A DNA stretch of 64,000 bases from an uncultured Acidobacteriota bacterium (GTDB lineage Bacteria; Acidobacteriota; Vicinamibacteria; Fen-336), in assembly GCA_964442185.1 (NCBI GenBank), contig CAYTWT010000293.1:17902-81901 (forward strand), read 5' to 3'. This document shows, in pieces, positions 9,846-49,814 of this stretch (within the stretch, counting starts at the first letter, position 1; every line of letters begins with the position of its first letter). Under the pieces are notes generated by a model. The model did no database searches, was not told where the DNA came from, and worked only from the letters and a program-made list of their open reading frames with translations. Both the position numbers and the translations under genes were made by a program.

Positions 9846-9884
9846 GCTGCGCGCCTCGGGGCAGGCGTTGTGAGGAGACACGCC

Positions 9885-10430: not shown

Positions 10431-10496
10431 GCCAGGCCGACAACCGGTTGCGGGCCGGTCTGGGTCGTAGCGGTCCGAGGGGCAGGGGGGAGGTCG

Positions 10497-11861
10497 ATGT
10501 TGAACAAGCTGATGAGGGACGCGGCGGAAGCCGTCCGAGACATCCCCGACGGCGCCTCGATCATGGTGTCGGGCTTCGGCCTGTGCGGGATTCCCGAGAA
10601 CCTGCTCACGGCGCTGCGCCAGCACGGGGCCCGGAACCTCACGATGATCAGCAACAACGCCGGCACGAACGACTTCGGGATCACGATCCTGCTGCAGAAC
10701 AAGCAGGTGCGCAAGATGATCTCGACCTACGTCGGCGAGAACAAGGTCTTCGAGAAGATGGCCCTGGCGGGCGAGATCGAGGTCGAGCTGAGCCCGCAAG
10801 GCACCTTCGCCGAGCGCATGCGCGCGGGTGGCGCCGGCGTTCCGGCGTTCTTCACACCCACCGGCTACGGCACGCTCATCGCCGAGGGCAAGGAGGTGCG
10901 CTGGTTCGGCGGCAGGCCCCACATCCTGGAAACGGGCCTCCGCGCCGACTATGCCTTCGTCAAGGCATGGAAAGGCGATCAGGCGGGCAACCTCCTGTTC
11001 CGCCGCACCACCCGCAACTTCGCGCCGGTGATGGCGATGGCGGCGAGGTGCACGATCGCCGAGGTGGAGCAGGTCGTGCCGGCGGGCGGCATCGATCCCG
11101 ATTCGGTGACGACGCCGGGGATATTCGTGCAACGCGTGTTCCAGGGCAAGAACTACGAGAAGCGCATCGAGAAGCGCACGCTGCTCGGTGGCGGCGGGGT
11201 CGAGATCGATCCCAGGCGCGAGCGCATCGTGAGGCGCGCCGCGAAGGAGATGAAGGACGGCTTCTACGTGAACCTGGGCATCGGCATGCCGACACTCGCG
11301 GCCAACTATCTCCCGGAGGGCGTTAAGGTCGTGCTTCACTCCGAGAATGGCATGCTGGGTGTGGGGCCGTATCCGGCGCCGGGCCAGGAGGACCCCGACC
11401 TGATCAACGCCGGCAAGGAAACCGTCACCGAGTTGCCTGGCGCGTCGTACTTCTCGAGCGCCGACTCCTTCGCGATGGTGCGTGGCGGCCACGTCGACCT
11501 CACGATTCTGGGCGCGCTCCAGGTCGACAAGGCGGGCAATCTCGCCAACTGGATGATCCCGGGCAAGATGGTCAAGGGGATGGGCGGGGCCATGGATCTG
11601 GTCTCGGGTGCGAAGCGCGTCGTCGTGACGATGGAACATTCTGCAAAGGACGGCTCGCCCAAGATCCTCGACTACTGCACCCTGCCCCTGACCGGCCAGC
11701 GCTGCGTCAACGTCATCGTCACCGAGATGGCGGTGATCGAGGTCGTGAAAGAGGGTCTGCTGCTCAAGGAAATCGCCCCCGACACGAACCTAGAGGCCGT
11801 GAAGAAGGTCACTGGAGCCGTGCTGATCGTCGACCCGGCCTTGAAGAGCATGGAGTTCTAG
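10497..11861 (+). CDS. 3-oxoacid CoA-transferase, fused subunit A + subunit B (ScoA/ScoB-like)
   Basis: N-half matches CoA-transferase A ([13 protein letters not shown] region), C-half matches subunit B (ending ...LIVDPALK) in one 454-aa ORF. Confidence 0.85.
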
Positions 11862-11884
11862 GCTTCCTTCCCAGAGAGCCGGGA

Positions 11885-11911
11885 TTGACAAGTCCGGCTG
11901 TCTTTTACTAT
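11885..11911 (+). promoter_or_regulatory. Candidate sigma-70 promoter for rho (TTGACA-N15-TACTAT) followed by ~80-nt leader with GAGCGAG/CTCGCTC hairpin
   Basis: Consensus -35 hexamer in AT-richer intergenic region 130 bp upstream of rho ATG. Confidence 0.35.
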
Positions 11912-11991
11912 CGTCGTGCCTATCCGGTCCAAGTGAGCGAGAGAAAGACCTTCCTCGCTCTCCTTCATTTCGCCGCTCCCGCGAGATCCTC

Positions 11992-13506
<1,515 letters not shown>

Positions 13507-13540
13507 TGCTCGCCCGCCTTGCCGACACGCTCGCCGGGAC

Positions 13541-13975
13541 TCAGGGGTCCTGTACGTCCGTGCGATCGCCGGCGCCGGGCCGGACGGTGATCTGTACGTT
13601 CTGCGTCGCGAAGGGCTTGCCGGTGCGGCGCAGCGTCACCTTGACGTTGTAGGTGGAAGCCCGGCCGTAGGTGTGGTTGGCCGTGAAGCGACGCTCGATC
13701 TTGGTGGTTCCGGGCTCGAACGGAACACAGTCGCCTTCCTGCACGCTCTTGCCCCCGTCGTCCCATTCCCACGTGAGCTCGGGACAGTAGAAGTCCTCGA
13801 TGTCGTCGCCGCCAGCCAGCTCCGCCGTGAACAGCACGCTGACGGGCGAGAAGGAGAAGCGCGGGGTCCCGCGCAGGGCCAAGCTCGGCTTCTTGCCCTT
13901 GGCGTCCTCCGCCGCGCTGCCGGGGCCGGCGGCGAGAGCAAGCAGGACGGGGAAGGCCACGGCACGGACATGCAT
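13541..13975 (-). CDS. Secreted hypothetical protein, PKD/Ig-like beta-sandwich
   Basis: Signal peptide MHVRAVAFPVLLALAAGPGSAAE; two Cys; no catalytic motif recognised. Confidence 0.5.
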   Translation of the reverse strand: MHVRAVAFPVLLALAAGPGSAAEDAKGKKPSLALRGTPRFSFSPVSVLFTAELAGGDDIEDFYCPELTWEWDDGGKSVQEGDCVPFEPGTTKIERRFTANHTYGRASTYNVKVTLRRTGKPFATQNVQITVRPGAGDRTDVQDP

Positions 13976-28083: not shown

Positions 28084-29101
28084 CGCCTAAGGGCCGACGC
28101 TGCAGACTTCTTGCCTGCACGGCAGTGACGGCGATCGCGTCGACGATGTCGTCGATGGAACAGCCGCGCGACAGGTCGTTCGCCGGCTTCGCGAGGCCCT
28201 GGAGAATCGGGCCGATAGCCTTCGCTCCTGCGAGCCGCTCGACCAGCTTGTAGCCGATGTTGCCAGAGTCGAGGTCCGGGAAGACGAGGACGTTGGCTTG
28301 GCCCGCGACCGCGCTACCCGGGGCCTTGCTCTCGCCGACGGCGGGTACGAGCGCCGCGTCGAGTTGAAGCTCGCCGTCGCACACGAGAAGGCTCGATCGC
28401 TCGCGCGCCATCCGAGCCGCCTCGCGGACCTTGCGCGAACGCGCGTGCTCTGCGCTACCGTGCGTCGAGAACGACAAGAACGCGAGGCGCGGCGTCTGCC
28501 GCAGGAACAGGCGGGCACTTTCGGCCGCGAGCAAACCGATCTCGGCGAGCTCCGACGCCGTCGGCTCGGGGTTGACACCGCAATCGGCGAACACCAGCAG
28601 GCCTTCGTCCCCGAACTCAGCCCTTGGCGTCGCCATCAGCATGAAGGACGAGACCCGTTCCACTCCGGCGCGCGGGCCGATGCCACGCAACGCCGCACGC
28701 AGAGTCGCGGCTGTCGTGCTCCGCGCGCCCGCTACGAAGCCGTCGTATCGACCCGCCGCCACCTGGAGCGCACCCCACAGCAGGGGGTCAGAGAGGTGAC
28801 GGCGTGCCTCCTCGCCGACGACACCGCGGTGCCGCACGCGGGCCTCGTAGACGCCCAGGGCCGCTTCGAAGGCCGGTCCGGCCGAGGGAACCGCCTCCTG
28901 GGTGATGCCGGCGAGATCGACCGAAGCCTCGCGCGCCACTGCGTCCAACGCCGCTGGGTCGCCGAGCAGGGTGACGCGGGCAATGCCCTCAGCAGTCGCC
29001 TTGGCGGCGGCCCGCAGTGTGCGGGGCTCACTGCCCTCAGGCAATACGATCGAGGCGGAGACCTCGCGGGCGCGGGCGCGGAGCCGATCCACGAAACCCA
29101 T
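28037..29101 (-). CDS. pta: Phosphate acetyltransferase
   Basis: Start at [14 protein letters not shown]; Pta/PTA_PTB motifs ...[31 protein letters not shown]. Upstream ~490 codons of the track ORF are artefact. Confidence 0.85.
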
Positions 29102-29206
29102 CGCCGCGGACGCTAACACAAGTTGGGGACGCTTTCGTTGACACGCGGCGAGCCGCTGTGATAGCGTTTCCGCCTCGTAACTACCTGAAGCTGTGGGGGA
29201 ACGCCA

Positions 29207-29542
29207 ATGAAAATCGTCGAGCGCCAGGTCGAGGATGTGGTGATCTTGGATCTTCATGGGAAGATCCTGATCGGCGAAGGAGACGACGCGCTCCGCGACG
29301 CCGTCACCCGGGTCGTCGACAGCGGAAAGACGAAGATCCTCCTGAATCTGGAGGATGTGCCCTACGTGGATTCGGCCGGCCTGGGCGAGATCGTGCGGTG
29401 TTACACCACAGTCAGCCGCAAGAACGGCAAGCTCAAGCTGATCAACCTCACGAAGAAGATCAAGGACCTGCTGTCGATCACCAAGCTGCTCACGGTCTTT
29501 GAAACCTACGAGTCGGAATCCGAGGCGATCAAGAGCTTCTAG
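29207..29542 (+). CDS. STAS-domain anti-sigma-factor antagonist (SpoIIAA/RsbV-like), orphan
   Basis: Classic STAS layout with conserved phosphorylatable Ser region DSAGLGEI; ~57% GC. Confidence 0.8.
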
Positions 29543-29611
29543 CAAGGGCACTTCGGCCCGTCCGGGCGGCCCTGGTTCGCGCCACGCGGCCTTAGGGAGC
29601 CGCTCCTTTCC

Positions 29612-30508
29612 ATGAAACCGCTTCTCGTCTCCCTCCGGCCGCACCAGTGGACGAAGAACCTCCTGGTCTTCGCTCCGCTGGCGCTGTCCAAGCATCTTTT
29701 CGAGCCGGAGCCGTTCCTGCGCGCGCTCGTCGCCTTTACCCTGTTCTGCGGGCTCTCGGGCGCTGTGTACCTCGTCAACGATGTCGTCGACGTCGAGCGC
29801 GACCGGCTGCATCCGAGAAAGCGGCTGCGGCCCGTGGCGAGCGGTGTGCTCTCCGCGCGGACGGCTTGCACCTTCGCGGGCCTGATTGGGCTTTCGTGCC
29901 TCGGCGCTTCGTTTGCGCTGGGTCCGGCCTTCGGCCTCTCGGCCCTGGCCTATCTGCTGCTGAACCTCGCCTACTCGTTGAAACTCAAGGAGATCGTGAT
30001 CGTGGACGCACTCGCGCTCGCACTCGGTTTCGTGGTGCGAGCGGTCGCGGGCGCCGTGGCGATCGGCGTCGTCTTCAGCGCTTGGCTGCTGATCTGCACC
30101 ATCCTGCTGGCCCTGTTCCTGACCTTTTGCAAGCGACGGCACGAGCTGACCTTGCTCACCGATGCGGCCTCCGAGCATCGCAAGAGCCTCGGGGAGTACA
30201 GCCCGTATCTGCTCGACCAGATGATCGCCGTCGTAACCGCGTCGTGCCTGATGGCGTACGCCTCGTACACGACCGCACCGGAGACGATCGAGAAGTTCCA
30301 GACCGACCGCCTGCCCTGGACCATTCCTTTCGTGCTCTACGGCATCTTCCGTTATCTTTATCTCGTGCACCGGCGGGAGCTGGGCGGCAGCCCGACGGAC
30401 ATCCTCCTGACCGATCTGCCGCTCATCCTCGACGTGGTCCTGTGGGCCCTTGCGATCGTGGTGATCGTGTACACGGCCCAGGGCGCGCCGATGCCGCTGG
30501 GGCGCTGA
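29612..30508 (+). CDS. UbiA-family polyprenyl-phosphate phosphoribosyltransferase (DPPR-synthase / Rv3806c / NoeC-like)
   Basis: N-terminus [15 protein letters not shown] and first Asp-rich motif [23 protein letters not shown] resemble decaprenyl-phosphate phosphoribosyltransferases rather than UbiA/MenA; 8-9 TM. Confidence 0.7.
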
Positions 30509-30509
30509 C

Positions 30510-31058
30510 ATGAGCTTCGAGATCCAGTCGAAAGACGTCGACGTCGAGGCCATCATGCGCGCGATCCGCAAGCGCATTGACGAAAAAAGGCAAGGCCTCT
30601 ACAGCGACGAAGAGATCCGGGAGATCGCCGAGCATCGGCTGGATGCCGTGCTCGACGCGCACGACTTCAATCCCGACTTCATCAAGGACTTCCGTGCGCA
30701 GGCGGCTCGCTGGAACTTCCGCTTCGGGCAAGGCACCGTATACGAGTCGAGCCGCGGGGCGGTGGGCCGGGTCCTGGAGACGATCCGGCGGCTCCTGAAG
30801 CCGATCCAGAAGCTGTTCTGGAACCCGAACCCGATGATTGCGGCGCTCTCCCGCCAGTCGGATCTGAACTCGTACTACGTCCACCTGCTCCACAACCTGG
30901 CAGTCGAGATCACCAAGCTGAACCTCGAGGTGCAGGATCTGCGCAACCGCTGCTTGGAGCTGCAGGGCCGCCTCGAGTTCCAGGTGCGACGCGAGAAGAC
31001 GCTCGAGGGGATGGTCGTCTACCGGGACGACGCGCCGGACGGGCGCCGCACCGAGTAG
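30510..31058 (+). CDS. Conserved hypothetical protein, C-terminal coiled coil, no TM
   Basis: Tight coupling (1-bp gap upstream, 0-bp downstream) inside glycan operon; no recognisable catalytic motif. Confidence 0.5.
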
Positions 31059-32246
31059 GTGAGGCTCGCGTTCGTGGTCCAGCGCTATGGCCTGGAGATC
31101 GCTGGCGGGGCCGAGTACCACTGTCGGCTCATCGCCGAGCACCTCTCGCGGCATGCGAAGGTCGAGGTGTTCACGACCTGCGCCGCCGACTACGTGACGT
31201 GGGCCAACCACTATCCCGAAGGCACCGAGGTCCTGAACGGACTGCCCGTGCACCGCTTCCGGGTCCAGCGCGAGCGCGATACCGTTCGCTTCGCGCGCGC
31301 GAGCCGTGAAGTATTCGAGAGCCCCCGGGGCGAACGCGAGGAGCTCGCGTGGCTCGAAGAGGAGGGGCCGTTCTCGCCCCGGCTCGTGAAGCAGGTGGAA
31401 CGGCGCCGCGCCGACTTCGACAGCTGGGTGTTCTTCTCGTACCGCTACTACACGACCTTCCACGGCCTCAGGGCCGCCCGCGATCGCGCGCTGCTCGTGC
31501 CGACGGCTGAGGACGACGGGGTTTACAAGCTGTCCATCTTTCGGCCACTGTTCCGGATGCCGCGTGCCATTGTCTGGAACAGCGTCGAGGAGAAGACGAT
31601 GATCGAGGCGGTTGCGGCGAACAGCGATGTGCCCGGGGACGTAGTAGGTGTCGGCTCCGCGCTCCCTGCGAGTCTCGATGGCCACGCGTTCCGTTCCGCC
31701 CACGGCGTCGATGGGCCGTTCGTGCTCTATGTCGGCCGGATCGACGAGAACAAGGGCTGCCGCGAGTTGTTCGGGTTCTTTCGGCGCTACCGCGAGGAAA
31801 CCGGCTCGCGCCTGCGCCTGATCCTCATCGGCAAGCCCATCTTGTCGATCCCCGACGATCCCGGCATCGTGCCGCTCGGTTTCCTGCCCGACGCCGAGAA
31901 GTGGAACGCCCTTGCCGCGTGCGAGGCGTTGGTCATGCCCTCGCGCTACGAGAGCCTGTCGATGGTGACGCTCGAGGCGTGGTGGGCCGGCCGGCCGGTG
32001 CTCGCGAACGCGAAGTGCAGCGTGCTGCGAGGCCAGTGCCAACGGTCGAACGCGGGTCTATACTACGCCGGCTACGACGAGTTTCGCGAAGCGCTCGCCG
32101 TGCTCGAGTCCGAGGCGGGCTTGCGCCAGACGCTGGGAGCGAATGGCCGGCGCTATTTCGAACAGAACTATGCCTGGGACGTGATCGAGCGGAAGTATTT
32201 GGCGCTCTTTGCCCAGGCCGGTCGAAGCGCGGGCCAAGGAGCGTAG
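31059..32246 (+). CDS. GT4-family glycosyltransferase (type A paralogue)
   Basis: GT-B fold; N-terminal VVQRYGLEIAGGAEYH and C-terminal E-x7-E region; GTG start abutting previous stop. Confidence 0.8.
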   Translation: MRLAFVVQRYGLEIAGGAEYHCRLIAEHLSRHAKVEVFTTCAADYVTWANHYPEGTEVLNGLPVHRFRVQRERDTVRFARASREVFESPRGEREELAWLEEEGPFSPRLVKQVERRRADFDSWVFFSYRYYTTFHGLRAARDRALLVPTAEDDGVYKLSIFRPLFRMPRAIVWNSVEEKTMIEAVAANSDVPGDVVGVGSALPASLDGHAFRSAHGVDGPFVLYVGRIDENKGCRELFGFFRRYREETGSRLRLILIGKPILSIPDDPGIVPLGFLPDAEKWNALAACEALVMPSRYESLSMVTLEAWWAGRPVLANAKCSVLRGQCQRSNAGLYYAGYDEFREALAVLESEAGLRQTLGANGRRYFEQNYAWDVIERKYLALFAQAGRSAGQGA

Positions 32247-32249
32247 CGT

Positions 32250-33323
32250 GTGATCCGGCGCGTCCCGCAGCTGCTGGCCGCGCTGTCCTACGGCGATGCG
32301 ATCGGCAACGAGGCCCTCGCCATTCAGCGTCACTTGCGTGCGGCCGGTTACGAATCTGACATCTTCGCCGAGCGCGTGCACCCGCGGATGGCGCGCCTGG
32401 CGCGGCCGCTTCACGAGTACCGCGAGGTCTCGTCGCCGGAAACCGTCTGTCTGTTCCATTTCTCGATCGGCAGTGCGGCAGGGCGGATGGCCTTCCACGC
32501 CCCCGATCGGCTCGTCGCCATCTACCACAACATCACGCCCGCCGAGTTCTTCCTGGGCTTCCAGCCGCACCTCGCGGGTCTGTGCTATCACGGGCGGCGG
32601 GAGCTCGCGGCATTTGCTCCGCGCACCGCGCTGGGCCTGGGCGACAGCGAGTTCAACCGGCGCGAGTTGCAGGCTGCCGGGTACCGCCGGACTGAGGTGT
32701 TGCCGATTGTTCTCGATCTCGAACGCTATCGTCAGCCCGCCTCGCCGGTCGTGCGCGGCCTCTACAGCGACGGCCGGAAGAATCTGCTATTCGTCGGCCG
32801 AATCATCCCCAACAAAAAGATCGAGGACCTGCTCCGCGTCTTTGCGATCTATCAACGCTATCTCGAGCCTCGCAGTCGCCTGCTGCTGGTCGGCGAGTCT
32901 CGTGGCTTCGAGCGCTACCAGCGCCGCTTGCGCGAAAGGGCGGCGGCGCTCCGGCTCGACAACGTGGTCTTCGCCGGCCACGTCGACGACGACGACCTGC
33001 GAGCCTACTATTCCGTGGCCGACGTCTTCTTGTGCCTGTCGGAACACGAGGGCTTCTGCGTGCCGCTCGTCGAGGCCATGAACTTCGGCGTGCCTGTCGT
33101 GGCGTTCGACGCAGGGGCCGTGGCTGAGACACTGCGCGGCGGCGGTGTGCTCCTGAAAGAGAAGCAACCGGAGGTCGTGGCGGAGCTGGTCCACCGGGTC
33201 CTGACCGACGCAGCGTTGCGCTCCGCCGTGATGGGCACGCAAGAACGAGCGCTGGCCGAGGTCCGGGCGACCGATTTCGGCGCCCTCCTGCGCGAGCGCC
33301 TCGCGCCGGCCCTGGTCTCATGA
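32250..33323 (+). CDS. GT4-family glycosyltransferase (type B paralogue 1)
   Basis: GT4 C-terminal motif CLSEHEGFCVPLVEAM; GTG start 3 bp after previous stop. Confidence 0.8.
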   Translation: MIRRVPQLLAALSYGDAIGNEALAIQRHLRAAGYESDIFAERVHPRMARLARPLHEYREVSSPETVCLFHFSIGSAAGRMAFHAPDRLVAIYHNITPAEFFLGFQPHLAGLCYHGRRELAAFAPRTALGLGDSEFNRRELQAAGYRRTEVLPIVLDLERYRQPASPVVRGLYSDGRKNLLFVGRIIPNKKIEDLLRVFAIYQRYLEPRSRLLLVGESRGFERYQRRLRERAAALRLDNVVFAGHVDDDDLRAYYSVADVFLCLSEHEGFCVPLVEAMNFGVPVVAFDAGAVAETLRGGGVLLKEKQPEVVAELVHRVLTDAALRSAVMGTQERALAEVRATDFGALLRERLAPALVS

Positions 33324-34402
33324 GCGCCTCTCGCCGGGCGGTCCATCAGCTCCTGGGGGCGCTCCACGCCGGCGACGCCGTGGGGCACGAAGCCCTCGTG
33401 ATCCGCGACACGCTGCGTGGCGCCGGGCATGTTTCAGAGATCTTCGCGGGCTTCATCGACCCGGAGCTCACGGCCGAGGCGCGGCCCCTTTCCGGCTACG
33501 CGGCGGTCTCGGGACCCGAAAGCGTCTGCCTGTTTCACTTCGCGCCGGAGAGCCCCGCCGCGCGGCTCGCGCTGGCCGTGCCCGATCGACTGGCGCTCGT
33601 GTTCCACAACATGACCCCGGCGGCGTTCCTGGCGCGCTTCGATGCCGGCCTGGCGCGCGCTCACATCCTGGGTCTGGGGCAGCTGCGCGCGTTCGCCTCG
33701 CGCGCGCGCCTGGCGCTGGCTCACAGCGATTTCAGTCGTCGTGACCTCGTGAGGGCGGGCTTCGCGGAGCGTGCGCGGGTGGTGCCCTTCGCCGTGGACC
33801 TTCGCGAGAAGCGACCGGCGGCTGCGCCCGTACTCCGCACGCTGTTCGCCGACGGGCACAGGAACCTGCTGTTCGTGGGCCGCATCGCTCCGAACAAGCG
33901 GATCGAGGACCTGTTGCGTGTGTTTGCCGCCTACCGGCGCCTGGCAGGCAAGCGCAGCCGCCTGCTGCTCGTCGGCGACACCACTGGCTTCCCCCGGTAC
34001 GTGCAGAGCCTGCACGCGCTGACCCGAGAGCTGCGCCTCGACGACGTCGTGTTCAGCGGTCACGCGAACGAAGCCGAGCTTCAGGCGTACTACTCCGTGG
34101 CAGCAGCCTTCGTGTGCCTCTCCGAGCATGAAGGCTTCGGCGTGCCCTTGCTCGAAGCCATGCTCTGGGACGTGCCGGTGCTGGCCTTCGACGCGGCGGC
34201 GGTGGCCGAGACGATGCGGGGTGGCGGTGTGCTGCTCCGGGACAAGCGTCCGGCGCTTGTCGCCGAGCTTCTGAACGAGATCCTGAGTCGGCCGGCTCTG
34301 CGCGAAGCCGTGCTCACGACGCAGCGGCGCGCGCTGGCGCAGTGGCGGGCGATCGACTTTGGCGCGCGGCTGCTCGCAGAGCTTCGACCACTGGTGGCGT
34401 GA
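33320..34402 (+). CDS. GT4-family glycosyltransferase (type B paralogue 2)
   Basis: CLSEHEGFGVPLLEAM; ATGA overlap with upstream gene. Confidence 0.8.
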   Translation: MSASRRAVHQLLGALHAGDAVGHEALVIRDTLRGAGHVSEIFAGFIDPELTAEARPLSGYAAVSGPESVCLFHFAPESPAARLALAVPDRLALVFHNMTPAAFLARFDAGLARAHILGLGQLRAFASRARLALAHSDFSRRDLVRAGFAERARVVPFAVDLREKRPAAAPVLRTLFADGHRNLLFVGRIAPNKRIEDLLRVFAAYRRLAGKRSRLLLVGDTTGFPRYVQSLHALTRELRLDDVVFSGHANEAELQAYYSVAAAFVCLSEHEGFGVPLLEAMLWDVPVLAFDAAAVAETMRGGGVLLRDKRPALVAELLNEILSRPALREAVLTTQRRALAQWRAIDFGARLLAELRPLVA

Positions 34403-35502
34403 TGGCGCGCCCCAGCCGCGTCGATCAGTGGGTCCCCGCCCTCCACCGCGGCGACGCGATCGGAGACTCGACGCTGCTGATGCGCGACGCGTTCCGCTCC
34501 TGGGGCCTAGCGGCCGAGGTGTACACGCTCGACGTCGACGACGAAGTTGCCTCCCAGGCCAGGCGCTTCTCGGCCTGGAAGGCGGGCGGCCCGGACGATG
34601 TGGTGATCCTCCACTATGCTCTGCCCTCGCGCCTGAGCGGGGCGTTCCGCGAGTTGCGCTGCCGGCGCGTGCTGCTGCACCACAACATCACGCCGCCAGC
34701 GTTCTATGCGCCGTACGACCCGGAGCTGGCAGGGATCTGTGCGCTGGGGCAAGCGGAAGTCCGCAGCCTCACTGCTCACGCAGAACTGGCGCTGGGCGAC
34801 AGCGAGTGGACCCGTCAGGAGCTCGAACGGATGGGCTTCGCGCGCACCGGCGTGCTGCCGATCCTGCTCGATTTTGAGCGCTACGCGGAAGCCCCCGGGG
34901 CCGTTCTGTCGCGGGCGCTGGGCGACGAACGGGTCAATCTTCTGTTTGTCGGCCGTGTCGCTCCGAACAAGCGCCACGAAGACTTGATCCGCGTCGCATC
35001 CTATTGGAAGCGCTTCATCGCATCGGACGTGCGCCTGCTGCTCGTGGGCAAGCGGCCGCGCCGCGAGACTGGCAATGGCCTGCCGCTGCGCAAGCACTAT
35101 CTCGACGCGCTCCAGTCGTTCCACTACGAGGAAGGCCTGGACGCGACGGAAGTGGTCTTCACGGGCCACGTACCCCACGACGACCTGCTCGCCTGCTACT
35201 CGCGCTCCCGCGTGTTCCTTTCGATGAGCGAACACGAGGGCTTCGGCGTGCCGCTCGTCGAGGCGATGCTGATGAACGTGCCAGTGCTGGCATTTCGCGC
35301 AAGCGCCGTGGGCGACACGCTCGGCGACGCGGGTTTGCAGTTTGGCGAGAAGTGCTTTGCCGAGGTCGCGGAGCTCTGCCATCAGCTTGCGACAGACGAG
35401 TCGTTGCGCGCGAGCGTTCTCGCGGGGCAGCGCCGCCGCCTGGAGGCGTTCGCGCCCGCCGCCGTTGAGGCGACGCTGCGGCGCCACCTGGAGTCGCTGT
35501 GA
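34402..35502 (+). CDS. GT4-family glycosyltransferase (type B paralogue 3)
   Basis: Start ATG overlapping previous TGA (TGATG); SMSEHEGFGVPLVEAM. Confidence 0.8.
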   Translation: MARPSRVDQWVPALHRGDAIGDSTLLMRDAFRSWGLAAEVYTLDVDDEVASQARRFSAWKAGGPDDVVILHYALPSRLSGAFRELRCRRVLLHHNITPPAFYAPYDPELAGICALGQAEVRSLTAHAELALGDSEWTRQELERMGFARTGVLPILLDFERYAEAPGAVLSRALGDERVNLLFVGRVAPNKRHEDLIRVASYWKRFIASDVRLLLVGKRPRRETGNGLPLRKHYLDALQSFHYEEGLDATEVVFTGHVPHDDLLACYSRSRVFLSMSEHEGFGVPLVEAMLMNVPVLAFRASAVGDTLGDAGLQFGEKCFAEVAELCHQLATDESLRASVLAGQRRRLEAFAPAAVEATLRRHLESL

Positions 35503-36701
35503 GCCGCAAGCCGCGGGTCGCGATCGTCATCCAGCGCTACGGAGCGGAGATCGCAGGGGGCTCCGAGTCCCTGGCTCGGGCGGTCGCCGAACGCCTGACG
35601 AGCGATCACGAGGTGACCGTGCTGACGACGTGCGCGCGCGACTACGTGAGCTGGAAGAACGAGCTGCCGGAGGGAGCACAGGGCGAGAACGGCGTCGAGG
35701 TCCTGCGTTTTCCCGTCGAGCAAGAGCGCGATCTGGCGTCGTTCAACCGCATCTCCGAGAGGCTATACGCCGGCGCACGCACTGAGACCGAGGAACTCGA
35801 CTGGCTCCGAAAACAGGGACCCGACGTGCCACGACTCGTCCAGCGCCTCGAAGCGGATCGTGATCGTTACGATGCTGTGTTCTTCTTCACGTACTTGTAC
35901 TTCCCGACGTACTGGGGCTTGCGGGCGGCGGCGGAGCGCTCGATTCTGGTTCCCACCGCTCACGACGAGCCACCGCTGGGGTTTTCGATCTATCGTCGCG
36001 TCTTCGAGGCTCCGCGGGCCTTCGTGTTCTGCTCTTCCCCGGAACGGGAGCTGGTCCGCCGGCGTTTCGAGATTGGCGCGCGACCCGAGGAGGTGGCGGG
36101 GATCGGCGTCGAGGTTCCCGCGGCTGCCGATGTCGAGGGCTTCCGTATCCGCCACGAGGTCCGCGGCCCTTACGCGCTTTACGCCGGCCGCATCGATGCT
36201 GGCAAGGGTTGCGATGAGATGCTCGAATTCTTCGGCCGTTACCGTGCGAGCGTCCGTGGGGGCGTGCAGCTGCTCTTGATCGGGCGACTCGCCATGCCCG
36301 AGCCCCGCGTTCCGGGCGTGCGCTACCTCGGCTACTTGGGCGAGGCGGAGAAGTTCGCGGCGCTGGCTGGGGCGAGCGCCGTCGTCTGCCCCAGCTCCCT
36401 CGAAAGCCTGTCGATCGTCCTGCTCGAGGCAATGGCCTACGGCACTCCGGTTCTTGCAACCGCGCGCTCGGCCGTGCTCGAGGACCATTGCCAGCGCTCG
36501 AACGCGGGGTTGTTCTATCGGGACGCGCCCGAGTTCGTGGAGGCGCTCGACCTCCTGGCCACGCAGCGCGACCTGGCGCGGGCGCTCGGCGAGAACGGGC
36601 GACGCTACGTGACCGAAGGCTATCGTTGGGACGTGGTGATGGAAAAGTACCGCCGGGCGATCGCCGCGGTGCGCACGGCTCCATACCCGCCGAGCTTCTA
36701 A
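35499..36701 (+). CDS. GT4-family glycosyltransferase (type A paralogue 2)
   Basis: N-terminus VIQRYGAEIAGGSESL paralogous to 31059..32246; GTGA overlap. Confidence 0.8.
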   Translation: MSRKPRVAIVIQRYGAEIAGGSESLARAVAERLTSDHEVTVLTTCARDYVSWKNELPEGAQGENGVEVLRFPVEQERDLASFNRISERLYAGARTETEELDWLRKQGPDVPRLVQRLEADRDRYDAVFFFTYLYFPTYWGLRAAAERSILVPTAHDEPPLGFSIYRRVFEAPRAFVFCSSPERELVRRRFEIGARPEEVAGIGVEVPAAADVEGFRIRHEVRGPYALYAGRIDAGKGCDEMLEFFGRYRASVRGGVQLLLIGRLAMPEPRVPGVRYLGYLGEAEKFAALAGASAVVCPSSLESLSIVLLEAMAYGTPVLATARSAVLEDHCQRSNAGLFYRDAPEFVEALDLLATQRDLARALGENGRRYVTEGYRWDVVMEKYRRAIAAVRTAPYPPSF

Positions 36702-37534
36702 CGCAAGGTCCTCAACAGCTCGAGCAACGCCTCGGTCGTCGGGGCGCCCTTGAGGATCGAGGCCGCCCGTGCAATCTGGTTGACGGCTTCCTCGATCGCT
36801 TCGGCGCCAGCCCCTTTTTCGATCTCGCCCTTTGCCCTGGCGTAGTGCTTGTTCACGACGCTCTCGCCCACGGAGCCGAGCAGATTGTTGCAGGCATCGC
36901 GCACTGTGAGCAGCTTCGCGAGCAGTTCGCCGCTCGCGGGGCCCCCGGCGGCCAGCCTGCCCGCGGCCCCCGGCTTTGCGGCGGTCCCGGCGAGAACGGT
37001 TTCCCGCAGCCGGATCAGCCCGGTGGCGATCAGGCCGTAGAGGATCTTGGCGGCGTCGAACACGGAAAGGCCGCTCGCCAGCGCGATCTGCTTGATCGAG
37101 CGCGTGGCATCGATCTTCGACAGGACCAACCACTCGCTCGTGTTCAGGTTGATCTGGCCCTCTCGCGTTTCCTGCACTACGAACTCCGGCACCAGTTCGG
37201 TCGAAGGGATCTTCTTGGAGAGCACCCGCCACTCGTCGAGCCGCCGCGCCGCCTCCATGAGCAGGTTGGTGTTGCTCTTGGAGATGGTGCGTAGCTCCGT
37301 CGAGATGCCGGGCTCGAACTTGAAGTCACCCCGGCTCCAGATCGCGAGCGCATAGACCGCTTCCTCACCCGTGGCGTCTTCGAGCTGGGCATGGACGATC
37401 TTCCCGTCGTTCAGGTAGATCTGGCCCTTGAGCGCGCCGTCGGTGAGGTGGAACAGGCCCGTTTTCCCACTGACGCTTATGAGCTGGATGATGTCCGGTA
37501 GATGAAGTTCCGCGAGCGAGCCCTGGAAGGCCAT
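36698..37534 (-). CDS. DUF4388-domain protein
   Basis: N-terminal GSLAELHLPDIIQLISVSGKTGLFHL...GKIVHA DUF4388 signature; last gene of HK-RR operon. Confidence 0.75.
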   Translation of the reverse strand: MAFQGSLAELHLPDIIQLISVSGKTGLFHLTDGALKGQIYLNDGKIVHAQLEDATGEEAVYALAIWSRGDFKFEPGISTELRTISKSNTNLLMEAARRLDEWRVLSKKIPSTELVPEFVVQETREGQINLNTSEWLVLSKIDATRSIKQIALASGLSVFDAAKILYGLIATGLIRLRETVLAGTAAKPGAAGRLAAGGPASGELLAKLLTVRDACNNLLGSVGESVVNKHYARAKGEIEKGAGAEAIEEAVNQIARAASILKGAPTTEALLELLRTLR

Positions 37535-37613
37535 ATCAGAAGGCTCTAAACCTCAGAATTGTCTGCCAATTAGAAGAGGCGAGGTTATCAAGGCGCAAAG
37601 GCGCCTGTCAAGA

Positions 37614-39068
37614 TCAGGCCGGCGTTGGCTTGGCCTGGCTCAGTTCCACTTCACGGCTTGCGGGGTGGCCGCTGCGCCTCTCGCGCTCGCGGGGAATCGC
37701 GATGTTGTGACGCTTGATCATCTCGTTCAGAGTCGTGGGCTTCAGGCCCAGGAGCCGGGCGGCTTCCTTCTGCACGCCGCGGGTCGACTCCAGGGTCGAC
37801 TCGATCAGACGCCGCTCGAAGCTCGCGATCACGTCCTTGAAGCTGATGCCCTCGGGCGGCACAGTCAGGTGCGGCACGTGGAAAACCGGGGCGCTACGCA
37901 CGTGGTCGGGGATGATGTCGCGCTCGATTTGCATGTCGGTGGTGAGCACGACGCCACGCTCGATCACGTTTTCGAGCTCGCGCACGTTGCCCGGCCAGTC
38001 GTAGTCCATCAGCACCTGAAGCGCTCCGGGTGCGACACCCGTCACGGTCTTGCCGTTCTCGCCCGCATACTTGTCGACGAAGTGCATGGCGAGGGCCGGG
38101 ATATCCTCTTTGCGCTGGCGCAGTGGCGGGAGCTGGATCGCGATGACGTTCAGGCGGTAGTAGAGATCCTCGCGAAAACGGCCCTCTTCCACAGCGCGGC
38201 GCAGGTCGATGTTGGTCGCGGCCACGATCCGCACGTCGACCTTGACCGTCTCGACGCCACCGAGGCGCATGAACTCACGCTCCTGCATCACGCGTAGCAG
38301 CTTGGCCTGGGTCTCGAGCGGGATGTTGCCGATTTCGTCGAAGAAGAGCGTGCCCTTGTCCGCCAGCTCGAAGAGGCCCTTCTTTGCGTACACCGCGCCG
38401 GTGAAGGCGCCCTTCACGTGGCCGAAGAGGTTGGACTCGAGCAACTCATGGGGAAGGCTTCCGGAGTTGACCACGATGAAGGGCCGTTCAGCACGCGGGC
38501 TGTTGGCGTGGATAGCCTTGGCCACCAACTCCTTGCCGGTGCCGCTTTCGCCGACCACCAGGATCGTCGAGCGCGAGGGAGCCGCCTGCGAGATCAGACC
38601 AAAGACCTGCTGCATCCGCTGGCTCTTCCCGATGATCTCGGTAAAACGCGCCTGGTCGCGCAAAGCGGTGCGCAGTTGGCGGTTCTCGTCCTGCAGATGC
38701 CGCTGCTTGAGCGCGTTCCGCAGGATGTGCAATACCTCTTCGTGCTTGAAGGGCTTCGTGACGTAGTCGAAGGCGCCCTTCTTCATGGCGGTGATCGCGG
38801 TCTCGACGGAGGCATAGGCGGTGATCATCAGCACGACGAGATCGGGATCCACGCGCTTCAGCTCCTCGAGCACCTCGAGGCCGCCAAGCTCCGGCAGCAT
38901 CACGTCCACGATGGCCGCGTCGAAGCCGGCCTTGCGGGCGAGTGAGAGGCCTTCGACCCCAGTCTCGGCCAGCGTCACCCGGTAGCCCGACTGGGTCAGC
39001 AGTGTCGTGAGCACGTCGCGCATCACCTCTTCGTCGTCGACGACGAGGATGGATTCGCCCTTGCTCAC
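37614..39068 (-). CDS. Sigma-54-dependent response regulator (NtrC family: REC + AAA+ + HTH)
   Basis: REC Asp (IVDVMLPE), GESGTGKE Walker A, GAFTGA sigma-54 contact motif, C-terminal Fis-type HTH. Confidence 0.9.
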   Translation of the reverse strand: MSKGESILVVDDEEVMRDVLTTLLTQSGYRVTLAETGVEGLSLARKAGFDAAIVDVMLPELGGLEVLEELKRVDPDLVVLMITAYASVETAITAMKKGAFDYVTKPFKHEEVLHILRNALKQRHLQDENRQLRTALRDQARFTEIIGKSQRMQQVFGLISQAAPSRSTILVVGESGTGKELVAKAIHANSPRAERPFIVVNSGSLPHELLESNLFGHVKGAFTGAVYAKKGLFELADKGTLFFDEIGNIPLETQAKLLRVMQEREFMRLGGVETVKVDVRIVAATNIDLRRAVEEGRFREDLYYRLNVIAIQLPPLRQRKEDIPALAMHFVDKYAGENGKTVTGVAPGALQVLMDYDWPGNVRELENVIERGVVLTTDMQIERDIIPDHVRSAPVFHVPHLTVPPEGISFKDVIASFERRLIESTLESTRGVQKEAARLLGLKPTTLNEMIKRHNIAIPRERERRSGHPASREVELSQAKPTPA

Positions 39069-41893
39069 CGTTGGGCGGCCTCGGCTACGAGGGCAGCCGG
39101 AAGTGCGACCTGGAACGTCGTGCCCGTGCCCGGCGCCGACTCCACGAAGATCGCGCCACCGTGCTCCTGGACGATGCCGTAGGAAACCGAGAGGCCGAGG
39201 CCGGTTCCGCGCCCGATGCCCTTGGTCGTGAAGAACGGGTCGTAGATGCGCTTGACGTCCTCACGCTTGATGCCGTGACCGGTGTCGCGCACCTCCACGA
39301 TCACCGTGTCGTCGTCGTCGGCGCGCGTCGCGATCGTGAGCCAGCCGCCCTTGGGCATGGCATCGCGGGCGTTCAGAATCAGGTTGAAGAACACCTGCTG
39401 AATGCGGTTCTCGTTGCCACGAATCGCAGGCAGGTCCTCGGCCATCTCCCGCACCACGCGGATGCGCGCCTTGTCCAGCTGGTGCTCGAGCAGCGACAAC
39501 ACCTCGAGCAGCGTCTTGTTCACGTCGAGGATTTCGAACTCGGAGCTCGAGGAGCGCGCGAAGTTCAAGAGGTTGTTGATGATCCTGGCCGCGCGGAAAG
39601 TCTGCTTCTCGATCTTATCGAGGAGCGGGAAGCGCAGGTCTTCGGGTTGCACCTGTTCTTTCAGCATCTGGGTGTAGGACGAGATGCCGGTGAGCGGGGT
39701 GTTCACCTCGTGGGCGACACCCGCCGCGAGCAGGCCGATCGAGGCCATCTTCTCCGAGTGCTGCAGCTGTTCTTCGAGGCGCACCCGCCCCGTGACGTCC
39801 TCGAGGATCAGCACCGTTCCGTGGCGCTCGCCCGAGACGACCTCGAAGGGCGCGATCGAGACGTTCACCATCAGGCTCCGGCCGTCGGCTGCCGGTAGGT
39901 GCAGCTTGTAAATGTGCGCGATCTCCTCGTGATCCTCGAGCACCAGGCTCCCGCGCAGCGCTTCGAGAAACGCGGCCGGGAAGATCTCGTCCAGGGTGCG
40001 TCCAAGTACCTCCCCGCGCTTCCGGCCGTAGAGCGATTCCATCGCCTTGTTCCAGCGCGCCACGGCGCCGTCGAGGTCGAGGACCAGGATCCCCGAGTCC
40101 ATGCTTTCGAGGATGTTCTGGTTGTATTCCGTGAGACGCTGCAACTCCTCGGCCTTCTCGCGCAGGCTCTTGTAGAGCCGGCCATTCATGAACGCCGTGG
40201 CGGCCTGACCGGCGAGGGCCTGGAGGACGTCGACCTCCTCACTGTTCAGCGTATCGAAGCCGTCCTTGCGGCCGATACCCAGTACCGCGATCACCTCGCC
40301 CTTCACCCGGCAAGGGAAGTAGTAGACGAAATCGAGCGGCCCGGCTTCGGGGAACGACTCGCCCGTGGCCTCGGCGTTCACGGGCTCGCCATGCGCAAGA
40401 CGCCGCAGCAGCGCGCCCCCGCGCGGCAGCCGTACGGTCTCGTTTTCCGGTGCGCAACCGCGCGACTCGAAAATCGAGAACGAGCCGTCGGCCTCCGGCA
40501 GGAAGGCGGCCACCGACGAGACGCGCAGCGCGGTGCCGACGCCTTCGAGCAGCCGAGCGGTCATCGAGTGCAGATCCAGGTCGGAGTTGAGGTCTTGCGA
40601 GAGGCGCAGCAGGGCCCGGCGTGGGCTCTCCCGCTCGCGGTAGAGCAGCTTGTCGATTACGTCCTGGATGCGGCTCTTGACGGGCGGGAAGAGCAACACC
40701 ACGACCAGCGTCGAGAGAATCGCGATGACGGTGACGTGGGGCTCCTCGTCGCCCGTGACGAACGAACCGAGCAGGCCGACGACCAGCAGGCAGATGCCGA
40801 CGATCGCGGCCGTGGCGAGGACGTAGACGAGCGAGCGTCGGAAGATCAGTTCGACGTCCATCAGCCGGTGTTTCACGACCGCGTAGGCGAGCGACAACGG
40901 GATGAGCGCCAGCGGGATGTAGCCAGCCAGCTCCATCGCAAAGCGCGGCTCACGCCCCAGCGCGAAGGGGATCGCGTAGAACAGGAAGAACGGGAGCACC
41001 CCGGCGCCGGTGCCCCACACCAGCCACTTCATCTGCTTGCGCGCCGTAAGGGAGCGGGTCTTGCGGTAGGAATCAAGCAGGATGCCGAAGGAGACCGCGA
41101 ACAGGAAGCCGAAGTAGAATGGCTTGCTGCGATCGATCGCCGCGGTGATCCGCCACAGCACCTCGCCCCCGGGCGTCGTCACGAACAGCACCTGGCTCGC
41201 GACGGCGGCGCCCGCCAAGGCCAGCGCGGGCATGTACGCGGCGGGCACGAGCCAGGCGCGGGACGAGGGCAGCCGCCTTTCCGGGAACGAGATGCAGAAA
41301 TGCAGGAAAACGACTGGCAGCAACAGGATCGCCAGGTGGTCGGTCCACAGCAGCGTCCAGTCGGCAAGGTTGAGCCGCCCCGTGTAGGACGTTGAGTACA
41401 TCAGGAAGAACAGCAGGCAGATCGCGTAGAAGTGGAGCGCCGCGCGGTCGGGCGGCCGGCGCAGCATCACGATCGTGCCGACGATCAAGCTGAAGAAGCC
41501 GACCAGCGAGAGATAGTAGAAGAGCGTTACGTTGCCCTTGCTGAGCGGCTTCACCGTGACTTCGAGCGAGCGACGCTCGTCGGCGCGCAGCAGCGAGTAC
41601 TGGACGTGGTCCCCGGCGGCGCGCCGCGCCAACCGCGCCTGGACCTGCGTTTGGGCGAGCACCTCGTCGCCATCGAGTGCTAGGAGCACGTCGCCGACCC
41701 GCACTCCGGAGAGGGCAGCGGGTCCACCGGATGCCACGCGAGCGGCGACAACGCCGGCGGCCCCGTTCTTCCAGAACACACCGTCGTCGAGCAGCGTCCA
41801 GGTCGCTTTCAGGAAGATGTTGTAGACCCCGAGGCTGGTGAGCAGCAGTGCCACCGCAAGAACAGCGAAGTTGCGGACCCGGGACCCCTTCAT
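39065..41893 (-). CDS. Sensor histidine kinase: N-terminal TM + periplasmic PDZ + ~8-TM block + GAF + PAS + HisKA + HATPase_c
   Basis: Start at ATG MKGSRVRNFAVLAV; PDZ-like GVRVGDVLLALDGDEV; H-box HEVNTPL; N, G1, G2 boxes; overlaps RR start by 4 bp. Confidence 0.85.
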   Translation of the reverse strand: MKGSRVRNFAVLAVALLLTSLGVYNIFLKATWTLLDDGVFWKNGAAGVVAARVASGGPAALSGVRVGDVLLALDGDEVLAQTQVQARLARRAAGDHVQYSLLRADERRSLEVTVKPLSKGNVTLFYYLSLVGFFSLIVGTIVMLRRPPDRAALHFYAICLLFFLMYSTSYTGRLNLADWTLLWTDHLAILLLPVVFLHFCISFPERRLPSSRAWLVPAAYMPALALAGAAVASQVLFVTTPGGEVLWRITAAIDRSKPFYFGFLFAVSFGILLDSYRKTRSLTARKQMKWLVWGTGAGVLPFFLFYAIPFALGREPRFAMELAGYIPLALIPLSLAYAVVKHRLMDVELIFRRSLVYVLATAAIVGICLLVVGLLGSFVTGDEEPHVTVIAILSTLVVVLLFPPVKSRIQDVIDKLLYRERESPRRALLRLSQDLNSDLDLHSMTARLLEGVGTALRVSSVAAFLPEADGSFSIFESRGCAPENETVRLPRGGALLRRLAHGEPVNAEATGESFPEAGPLDFVYYFPCRVKGEVIAVLGIGRKDGFDTLNSEEVDVLQALAGQAATAFMNGRLYKSLREKAEELQRLTEYNQNILESMDSGILVLDLDGAVARWNKAMESLYGRKRGEVLGRTLDEIFPAAFLEALRGSLVLEDHEEIAHIYKLHLPAADGRSLMVNVSIAPFEVVSGERHGTVLILEDVTGRVRLEEQLQHSEKMASIGLLAAGVAHEVNTPLTGISSYTQMLKEQVQPEDLRFPLLDKIEKQTFRAARIINNLLNFARSSSSEFEILDVNKTLLEVLSLLEHQLDKARIRVVREMAEDLPAIRGNENRIQQVFFNLILNARDAMPKGGWLTIATRADDDDTVIVEVRDTGHGIKREDVKRIYDPFFTTKGIGRGTGLGLSVSYGIVQEHGGAIFVESAPGTGTTFQVALPAALVAEAAQR

Positions 41894-42054
41894 GCGCTTA
41901 GACTGAATCCACCCGGCTGCAATCGGCATGCCGCAATCGAGGCGGACTCGCACGCGTAAGGCGCTGATATCACACAGACTTCCCCCCTCATTCGGGGCTG
42001 CGAATCCGGATTCACGGAATCGAAGTTCATTGCGTTGGAGTGCCAGTCCGATCA

Positions 42055-42083
42055 AGAAAAAAGCGAGGCCCGCGGCGCCTCGC
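42055..42083 (-). terminator. Rho-independent terminator downstream of outer-membrane protein gene (stem GCGAGGC/GCCTCGC, then UUUUUUCUU on - strand)
   Basis: 7-bp GC stem + U-tract read on minus strand, 48 nt after the stop at 42131. Confidence 0.4.
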
Positions 42084-47954: not shown

Positions 47955-48023
47955 CCGCTGGCCGACGGCTCCGCCGTCCTCGCGACGCTTCTCGCCTATC
48001 TCGCCTTCGCGGCGCTCGCGATC

Positions 48024-49814
48024 GTGGGCCCCGGCGTCGCGCTGCAGCGCCTGCTGCGGCTGGCGACCGACGTGGCGCTGGTCGTCCCGATCGGCCTGAC
48101 CTTCTCCGCACTCTCGGCCTGGGCGGCATTCGCCTCAGGCCGGCACTGGCTGTTTCCGGCGCTGGTCCTTGCGGTGGACGCGACCCTGTTGCTGCCGCTC
48201 GGCCCGTGGCGGCGCTCCCCGGGCCCGTCGCTGCGGGGCGCGGCACCTGCCGCCCTGGCCATCGTCGGGGTGCTGGCTGTGACCCAGTACCCGCTGAACC
48301 GGATCGACGCGAACGGCGACTTCCTGCTGGACGACCTCGAGCGCATCGACACGGCGTTCCACGTAGCCGTCACCTGGGAGCTCACGAACTCGTGGCCGCC
48401 GCAGGTGCCGGGCCTCGCGGGCGTCCCGCTTCACTATCACCTCGGGCCGCATCTGATCCGGGCGGCGGCATGGCGCTGGGCGGGGATCACGCCCTACGAC
48501 GCGATGTATCGCTTCGACGTGACGCTCTGGGCGATCGGCCTGGTACTGGCCCTGCGCGCGGCGGCACGGGCGCTCGGTGGCGGTCGCTTCGCGCTCGCAC
48601 TCGCCGGCTTCAGTCCGCTGCTCGCGGATTTCTCGTTCGTCTTCGCCGGGCAGCCGAGCGCACGCTGGTGGCCCGAGTTGATGGGCGGAAACCTGCTGCT
48701 GTCCTTGATCTTCGCGAACTCCCTCGTCCCGGCGCTGGCCCTCACGCTGGGCGTGGTCGTCGCGCTCGGCCGCGCACGCGCGGGCGAGGGGCGCGGATGG
48801 CTGGTGCTGGCCGGGGTGCTCGCAGCCGCTGTCCCGTTCTTCAAGATCTTCCTGGCCGCACCGCTCGCCGCGGGGCTGCTGGTCGCGCTGGTGGTGTGCG
48901 GCAGCGCGGAGTCGCTACTGGCGGTCGCGGCGTCTTGTCTGGTCGCGACGGTCGCGCTCGTGCTCGGTTCCGGAACGCCGCTCGAGATCCTGCTCGACCC
49001 ATTGGCGCCCGTGGCTCACACGCGGCAACTGCTCGGCCTGCCGCCGCTCGAAGGCGCGCGGCTCGCAAGCTTTGCCGCGCCCTGGCTCGCCGCGGCTTTG
49101 GGCTTGCGTCTGCTGGCCTTGCCGGGCGCACTGCGCGCCCTCGGGTCGCGCTCGGTGGCCCTGGTCGTGCTGGGGACGATGGCGCTTGTCGGTTGGCCGA
49201 TCGCCCTGCTGCTCCGGCTCAGCGCGGACCGGGAGTTCAACGAGGCGGTCTACTTTACGGTTCAAAGCGGCGCGCTGCTCTGGCTCTTCGTGGCCCTGGC
49301 CCTCGAGCGTCTCGCGCTTTCGGGCATCCGGCCAGGGCTGCTGGTCGCGATCGCCGCGGCCCTCTCGCTGCCCGCCACGGCCGAACTGGTGATTCGCAAG
49401 GCGCTCTCGCCACCCGATGTCGTTCCCGCGCGAGTGCTCGAGGCGATGGCTGCCCTCGCCGGCGACTCTCGCCCGGGCGACGTCGTGCTGATGCGCCCCT
49501 ATTCGCGCTTTCCGCCACCGCCGGTCGTGTTCGTGCGGCGGCGCCTGCCGTACACGATCTACCTGCCGTACATGCGCCAGTTCGCTACGCCGGCGCTGTT
49601 GCACGCACGTTCGGAGCTGCTGCGCAGTTTTTTCCGAAGTAGCGACCCTACCGAGGCGGGCCGCCTTGCGGCTGAGCTTCACGCGCGCCACGTGTTCGTC
49701 CACGGGCCGCAGCCGATCGGCCCCGGAGCTCGCGCGATCCTCGATCCCATCTATTTGAAACAGGACACCGGGCTGTACCGGATTCGCTTCCCGAACTCGC
49801 CCGTACCGGAGTGA
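48024..49814 (+). CDS. Polytopic integral membrane protein (>=12 TM) with C-terminal soluble domain; possibly GT-C-like glycosyltransferase (speculative)
   Basis: GTG start in track; upstream in-frame hydrophobic codons back to eno stop suggest N-terminus may be longer. Confidence 0.5.
   Translation: MGPGVALQRLLRLATDVALVVPIGLTFSALSAWAAFASGRHWLFPALVLAVDATLLLPLGPWRRSPGPSLRGAAPAALAIVGVLAVTQYPLNRIDANGDFLLDDLERIDTAFHVAVTWELTNSWPPQVPGLAGVPLHYHLGPHLIRAAAWRWAGITPYDAMYRFDVTLWAIGLVLALRAAARALGGGRFALALAGFSPLLADFSFVFAGQPSARWWPELMGGNLLLSLIFANSLVPALALTLGVVVALGRARAGEGRGWLVLAGVLAAAVPFFKIFLAAPLAAGLLVALVVCGSAESLLAVAASCLVATVALVLGSGTPLEILLDPLAPVAHTRQLLGLPPLEGARLASFAAPWLAAALGLRLLALPGALRALGSRSVALVVLGTMALVGWPIALLLRLSADREFNEAVYFTVQSGALLWLFVALALERLALSGIRPGLLVAIAAALSLPATAELVIRKALSPPDVVPARVLEAMAALAGDSRPGDVVLMRPYSRFPPPPVVFVRRRLPYTIYLPYMRQFATPALLHARSELLRSFFRSSDPTEAGRLAAELHARHVFVHGPQPIGPGARAILDPIYLKQDTGLYRIRFPNSPVPE

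Follow-up and report, generated by a model that had tools for sequence, protein, structure and literature searches.

A class-conserved UbiA–U182–GT4 operon of Vicinamibacteria with two old glycosyltransferase paralogue classes and an apparently late extra copy

Within 64 kb of DNA from an uncultured Acidobacteriota bacterium (contig CAYTWT010000293.1, positions 17,902 to 81,901; hereafter the window), five consecutive genes encode glycosyltransferases of family 4 (GT4), which we call A, B1, B2, B3 and A2 in their order on the DNA. They are the last five genes of a seven-gene operon, UbiA, U182, A, B1, B2, B3, A2, which opens with genes for a UbiA-family phosphoribosyltransferase and a conserved 182-residue protein, U182 (Table 1). 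Throughout the class Vicinamibacteria, whose members abound in soil and have rarely been cultured, and for which we know of no described envelope glycans, the UbiA–U182–GT4 module is conserved and keeps the same gene neighbourhood. Our preferred interpretation, to which we give a probability of about 0.6, is that the operon serves an envelope glycoconjugate conserved throughout the class, each GT4 clade adding one sugar, and that B2 is a late duplicate of B1. A pattern of tandem glycosyltransferase paralogues is in itself ordinary; the UbiA–U182–GT4 operon is uncharacterised, and we regard the module, together with the recurrent duplication of B1, as being of moderate interest.

All five GT4 open reading frames (ORFs) of the window are intact and lie on the + strand. 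From UbiA to A2 the successive junctions measure +1, 0, +3, −4, −1 and −4 nt, and such spacing indicates translational coupling of the UbiA, U182 and GT4 genes. The ORF list opens B3 at a GTG at 34342; the ATG at 34402, adopted here, overlaps the stop of B2 by 1 nt and agrees with the starts of the orthologues.

A preliminary description of this DNA had proposed a nested order of two paralogue classes, A-B-B-B-A, both of them old and diverged, and every peptide string that it cited can be read in the five translated ORFs. Comparison by BLASTP confirmed that the first and fifth GT4s are paralogous (A and A2, 47% identity over 379 aa with 0 gaps, E 8e-118) and that the three central proteins are mutual paralogues (B1 and B2, 56% over 352 aa, E 7e-129; B1 and B3, 40%, E 7e-77; B2 and B3, 41%, E 3e-74). 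Between A-type and B-type proteins the matches span 38–211 aa of the C-terminal domain only, at 23–39% identity and E values of 1e-4 to 1e-10, and this we took as the family-level baseline for GT4 enzymes. In a five-way alignment A and A2 share an insert of about 50 residues in the N-terminal domain, and B3 has a specific insert of about 13 residues. Identities of 40–56% within a class, combined with shared indels, place the similarity far above chance and above generic GT4 resemblance, where pairs of random GT4s would stand at about 20% or less with no indels in common. Neighbour-joining (NJ) trees with 100 bootstraps separate the A-type from the B-type proteins at 100. At the DNA level B1 and B2 are 66% identical over 1063 nt and A and A2 about 69% in patches; between copies across the array identity is patchy at 66–77%, and the longest common exact word is 19 nt. 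No long near-identical repeats, as expected of a recent tandem duplication array, were found between the five copies, and self-comparison left no sign of gene conversion. The nested order thus holds, as does the age of the two classes, on the identities, the shared indels and the low DNA identity.

Two features could still be taken to mean that the similarity is merely that of the family, or goes back to duplication or gene conversion in the recent past, the arrangement of the genes being nothing special: GT4 genes often cluster in glycan loci, and the generic GRxxxxK and Ex7E motifs are common to all five proteins. Set against these are the full-length extent of the within-class identity, where the baseline covers part of one domain, the lack of any recent DNA repeat, and the separate orthologue clades that the individual paralogues form across many genomes. 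We give this explanation next to no chance, and on BLASTP, trees and DNA comparison it is already refuted.

All five proteins pass the Pfam family Glycos_transf_1 (PF00534), at 56–107 bits against a cutoff of 26.4. Both motifs are also kept in 145 of 147 related GT4s, the exceptions being the A2 proteins of two distant loci (L045 and L047), in which GRxxxxK finds no match and Asp takes the place of the first Glu; judged by sequence, all the GT4 copies look functional. An AlphaFold2 (AF2) model of A, the one protein modelled, has a confident GT-B fold with a predicted local distance difference test score (pLDDT) of 91.2. The best solved structures that Foldseek matches to this model are retaining GT4s at 11–21% identity, namely sucrose-phosphate synthase (6kih), MshA, GlgM, methylmannose-polysaccharide mannosyltransferase, PglA, BshA, PimB' and WaaG; the top matches 6kih, MshA, GlgM, PglA and BshA have template-modelling (TM) scores of 0.6–0.74. 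Sequence searches gave an equally generic GT4 picture, with PimB' and PimA among the matches. Against named GT4 equivalogs (EpsE, BshA, MshA, PimA/B, HpsP, GlcN-PG synthase and others) the five proteins score 42–74 bits, where the NCBIfam cutoffs are 260–550. Since no equivalog cutoff is approached, these are GT4 enzymes without assignable specificity, and we describe them as predicted retaining-type glycosyltransferases of GT-B fold in two paralogue classes.

Protein searches with A and B1 returned thousands of matches each, and the best 120 for each, which we inspected, are 65–97% identical to the query. Orthologues of B1 at 70–97% identity occur in many contigs. Overall, orthologues are 60–97% identical and paralogues 40–56%; with orthologues so much closer than paralogues, the A/A2 and B1/B3 splits must be old. 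Scanning 185,579 species genomes with an alignment of U182 yielded 43 loci, and a metagenome scan with B2 added 80 more, in all of which every GT4 ORF was classified. The 43 genome loci come from metagenome-assembled genomes of Acidobacteriota, those named below phylum belonging to the class Vicinamibacteria; the single exception is binned as Hyphomicrobium and is evidently a mis-binned contig. The conserved order runs rsmI, S21, often a zinc-ribbon gene and pta, STAS, UbiA, U182 and the GT4 array, followed on the − strand by genes for a PatA_N protein, a response regulator and a histidine kinase. The STAS gene always lies directly upstream of the operon, and U182 always lies between UbiA and the array, with one exception regarding UbiA. 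In that case, the complete chromosome L043 (OY970399.1), the order at 9639–13838 is STAS-U182-B1-B3-A2, and U182 follows STAS without an intervening UbiA gene.

Of the arrays seen, A-B1-B3-A2 is the most frequent and the most widely distributed, present in 11 genome loci, among them the deep lineages L037–L041 and L044, and in the large majority of informative metagenome contigs. Ten genome loci have B1-B3-A2 without A, and three distant genomes (L045–L047) carry A and A2 only. A2 is found in every complete array seen and B3 in most arrays. Two additional A-type copies are present in L013, L014 and L016. When B-type copy number is compared in these relatives, the three B genes of the preliminary description part company: the B1 and B3 classes are widespread, and the third B is lineage-specific. 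It precedes B1 in L009 and L010, lies between B1 and B3 in the window, L003, L005, L024, L027 and L128–L130, and follows B3 in L001, L014, L028, L031, L032 and L052–L054.

Gene A is missing from L015, L019, L023–L036 and L043, where B1 stands directly after U182; we infer that the A-less clade either does without the reaction of A or has it supplied from elsewhere. In the expanded arrays of L013, L014 and L016 (about 10.5–20.5 kb), B3 is separated from an extra B copy by an ORF of about 880 aa with no Pfam match, and the ORFs inserted in the expanded arrays of L014, L027 and L003 likewise have no Pfam match. An apparent B1-A2 array in L025 was rejected, as its second GT4 (B3 by position, with no finer class) shares the ORF of A2 (11603–13975); this continuous ORF may be a genuine gene fusion or else a fault in the long-read assembly.

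Orthologues of the window's B2, at 64–96% identity, were found only in its nearest relatives, that is, in L005 (64%), L048 (84%), L049 (81%), L050 and L051 (both partial) and L128–L130, and in the B2-bearing relatives B1 is 79–97% identical to that of the window. Between the window and L005 the operon proteins are 86% (UbiA), 85% (U182), 81% (A), 80% (B1), 64% (B2), 74% (B3) and 82% (A2) identical, so that B2 is the fastest-evolving gene of the operon. In the NJ trees the B3 clade has a bootstrap of 99, the A clade 99 and the main A2 clade 65. The A clade includes the deepest lineages, which makes the A/A2 split older than the sampled diversity, and we conclude from the sequence comparisons that both it and the B1/B3 split predate most of that diversity. 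The extra B copies form several small groups with bootstraps of 88–100, for example the window's B2 with L005_g3 at 88, and they branch near the base of B1 as a grade with poor resolution (23–66). The extra copies are 50–56% identical to all crown B1s and to one another, and the B1 from the same genome is no nearer to them than the rest.

Such a tree could be taken to favour a single ancient tandem triplication of B inside the A/A' pair, with B1, B2 and B3 equally old and the four-gene arrays produced by repeated loss of B2. The extra B copies, B2 included, do branch outside the B1 clade that holds the deep lineages (support 66), and B2 is not nearer to its own B1 than to others. A relative-distance test points the other way. 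The window's B2 is 52% identical to crown B1 and 40% to deep-lineage B1, and the other extra copies show gaps of 6–16 points; in general the extra copies are about 10–12 points nearer to crown than to deep B1, against a difference of about 3 for the B3 outgroup (41 vs 38). This gap implies that the extra copies descended from B1 inside the crown lineage and then diverged fast, and their basal position in the NJ trees is best read as long-branch attraction. Also speaking against equal age are the restriction of B2-type orthologues to near relatives and the three different positions of the extra copies, mutually just 50–56% identical. We therefore consider one ancient triplication to be distinctly unlikely. 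The earlier proposal of a tandem triplication inside a duplicated pair survives as two nested old paralogue classes and fails as a single event, the B copies having arisen by two or more steps set far apart in time. On this evidence B2 appears to have been duplicated from B1 more recently, to evolve fast and to be restricted to the near relatives of the window, and B1 seems to have been duplicated repeatedly in other lineages, at different positions. The most parsimonious history would start from an old A/A2 pair with an old B1/B3 pair between its members, followed by recurrent later duplications of B1, including that which gave B2, and by loss of A in one clade. The genomes with A and A2 only would represent either the ancestral state or loss of the B genes.

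The product of the first gene of the operon scores 282 bits against NCBIfam NF008977 (decaprenyl-phosphate phosphoribosyltransferase, cutoff 234), aligns over its full length (residues 6–282, E 3.7e-35) with the Mycobacterium tuberculosis enzyme DPPRS, Rv3806c (8j8j), and conserves with it the Asp-rich stretch YLVNDVxDVExDRxHPxKRxRPxAxGV. U182 has no Pfam, NCBIfam or Protein Data Bank (PDB) match. It has 1118 homologues in 645 clusters at 50% identity, and the 120 listed are all unnamed or called 'hypothetical protein'; diverged copies were detected by profile in distant loci. The AF2 model of U182 places a helix at residues 106–174 (pLDDT 64). One database protein, P0427, is a fusion of U182 with a GT4 and so links the two; the other long homologues owe their length mostly to disordered tails. 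The U182 proteins of deeper Vicinamibacteria lineages (L037–L047) have long disordered tails rich in Arg, Glu, Asp and Gly that carry a 10-residue motif. An apparent fusion of U182 with A in L057 was dismissed as an out-of-frame extension of the ORF, the true U182 lying in another frame.

We propose that every GT4 clade is responsible for a single sugar or linkage, drawn from a nucleotide sugar and transferred on the cytoplasmic side of the membrane to a lipid-linked (or lipid) acceptor as it grows. Between them the four core enzymes would produce a short oligosaccharide of defined structure, part of an envelope glycoconjugate; additional B copies, B2 among them, would each add or alter one residue, giving lineage-specific glycan variants. 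The UbiA enzyme may feed polyprenyl-phospho-ribose(-5-P) to the same pathway, as acceptor or primer or as pentofuranose donor, and U182 is probably a coiled-coil organiser. A strictly syntenic, class-wide operon amid housekeeping genes points to a core envelope glycoconjugate, and a stable GT4 core with a recurrently duplicated B1 position would be a tractable example of glycan diversification.

Pfam searches of the main predicted ORFs of the window found no flippase (MATE or other), polymerase, exporter, GT-C enzyme (GT136), phosphatase (phosphoribose phosphatase included) or initiating phosphoglycosyltransferase, and there are no DprE1/E2 or Rv3807c-like genes in the window. Several points weigh against our interpretation. 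With these functions missing from the 64 kb, neither the start nor the end of the pathway is seen. All five GT4s score far below every equivalog cutoff, and none points to a donor, acceptor or product. The L043 array shows that the link with UbiA is not obligatory in cis. Finally, the base of B1 and the extra B copies is poorly resolved, and one ancient B2 lineage that was lost many times over keeps a small probability. The preliminary description had also suggested a repeating-unit oligosaccharide as the reason for sequential related transferases. This is plausible and not supported: the window does not have the make-up of a Wzx/Wzy- or ABC-transporter-dependent repeat-unit locus, and the neighbours of the operon are housekeeping or regulatory genes.

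Multi-GT4 loci are known from the O9a polymannan of Escherichia coli, where WbdA, WbdB and WbdC work with the coiled-coil terminator WbdD, and from the mycobacterial PimA/PimB' enzymes. As in those, several paralogous retaining GT4s lie side by side, each presumed to add one cytoplasmic sugar, and the small coiled-coil protein U182 that accompanies them is reminiscent of a scaffold or ruler. As differences, no GT4 of the window reaches a curated family cutoff; an ABC exporter, a WecA/WbaP-type initiator and terminator domains are all missing from the surroundings of the operon, and U182 has no detectable homology to WbdD. WbdB and WbdC are also mentioned in a study of three-component pentofuranose glycosylation, a system that combines a polyprenyl-phosphate phosphoribosyltransferase (PPPRS) with a phosphatase, a MATE flippase and a GT-C/GT136 enzyme (Kelly et al. 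2024, PMC11127046). Known pathways with such a phosphoribosyltransferase need either all three of these further functions (PMC11127046) or DprE1/E2. The operon resembles this system in that its first gene encodes a homologue of the same UbiA-family enzyme, and departs from it in that the partners are not in the window and the PPPRS homologue is coupled to cytoplasmic Leloir GT4s. The full-length alignment with Rv3806c likewise recalls the mycobacterial decaprenyl-phospho-arabinose pathway (Rv3806c, Rv3807c, DprE1/DprE2), of which the other genes are absent from the window; the host here is an acidobacterium, not an actinobacterium. Known pathways do not account for a phosphoribosyltransferase that is coupled to Leloir GT4s and has neither a flippase nor a GT-C enzyme close by, and a literature search on Vicinamibacteria glycosyltransferases and acidobacterial DPPRS found nothing relevant.

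Two other schemes concern the role of the UbiA enzyme. The first has two arms and would be lipoarabinomannan-like or three-component: the GT4s would build a glycolipid or polysaccharide backbone in the cytoplasm, and flipped polyprenyl-P-ribofuranose, or an epimer, would serve to decorate it outside the membrane through a GT-C enzyme encoded elsewhere. Its appeal lies in the PPPRS/DPPRS homology, in the use of such an enzyme by the published three-component pathway (PMC11127046), in the PimB'/PimA proteins among the sequence and fold matches of the GT4s, and in a PMT_2-like protein (a weak match) encoded about 2.5 kb upstream in L001, L003 and L004. We hold it to be unlikely, as the window lacks the MATE flippase, the HAD/PAP2 phosphatase, DprE1/E2 and the GT-C enzyme, neither the window nor L005 nor L128–L130 carries the PMT_2-like gene, and the tight translational coupling of UbiA, U182 and the GT4s suits a single assembly line better. 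The PMT_2-like protein has 562–569 aa and is encoded between purD and rsmI (L001, 5111–6820; L003, 3311–4999; L004, 3381–5069); it matches PMT_2, a GT-C family, weakly in L001 and no Pfam family in L003 and L004. We rejected it as the missing extracytoplasmic transferase, since searches did not find it in the window or L005 and it is absent at that position from L128–L130. In the second scheme, which we think quite improbable, the UbiA phosphoribosyltransferase would replace the initiating phosphoglycosyltransferase; polyprenyl-P-ribofuranose-5-P would be the primer, on which the GT4s, organised by U182, would build a monophosphate-linked oligosaccharide. If so, this would be an initiation route undescribed in bacteria, Vicinamibacteria-wide, and the duplications of B1 would diversify its product.

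Table 1 Coordinates of the operon and its flanking genes in the window
Feature	Position	Strand	Basis or remark
STAS-domain anti-sigma-factor antagonist	29207..29542	+	Pfam STAS 59.9 bits; TIGR00377 70 bits (cutoff 53)
UbiA-family polyprenyl-phosphate 5-phosphoribosyltransferase (DPPRS/PPPRS-like)	29612..30508	+	operon gene 1; NF008977 above cutoff
U182, 182-aa conserved protein	30510..31058	+	all-helical model, long C-terminal helix
GT4 gene A, outer paralogue 1, 395 aa	31059..32246	+	PF00534 56 bits
GT4 gene B1, core inner paralogue, 357 aa	32250..33323	+	PF00534 107 bits
GT4 gene B2, apparent lineage-specific extra copy, 360 aa	33320..34402	+	PF00534 78 bits
GT4 gene B3, core inner paralogue, 366 aa from ATG 34402	34402..35502	+	PF00534 70 bits
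GT4 gene A2, outer paralogue 2, 400 aa	35499..36701	+	PF00534 62 bits
PatA_N (DUF4388)-type protein	36698..37534	−	orthologues annotated PF14332; 50–80% identity across loci
NtrC-type sigma-54-dependent response regulator, candidate regulator	37614..39068	−	AtoC/NtrC NCBIfam matches, all below equivalog cutoffs
PDZ/GAF/PAS sensor histidine kinase, paired with the response regulator	39065..42055	−	AtoS-like NCBIfam matches below cutoff; Pfam domains of orthologues

The rest of the window is housekeeping in character (among its genes trpC, DAHP synthase, rho, purD, rsmI, pta, glgC, enolase, methylmalonyl-CoA mutase and gatB), with no further glycan genes elsewhere in the 64 kb. Two ORFs of high GC at third codon positions (GC3) lie on the + strand, one of 619 aa at 47955–49814 with no Pfam or NCBIfam match and one of 535 aa at 7489–9096, which follows an ABC ATPase gene and has no Pfam match. 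A promoter and terminator scan of 28900–37700 gave counts not above those of shuffled sequence. The response regulator and histidine kinase were considered as the PEP-CTERM pair PrsR and PrsK and set aside because their scores fall under the cutoffs. Together with the PatA_N gene they are convergent to the array in most related loci (36698–42055 here, − strand), and the three may regulate it. On the other side of the operon, the STAS gene ranks with the best conserved of the neighbourhood, at 85–97% identity in most loci and 64–73% in the deepest, exceeding every glycosyltransferase.

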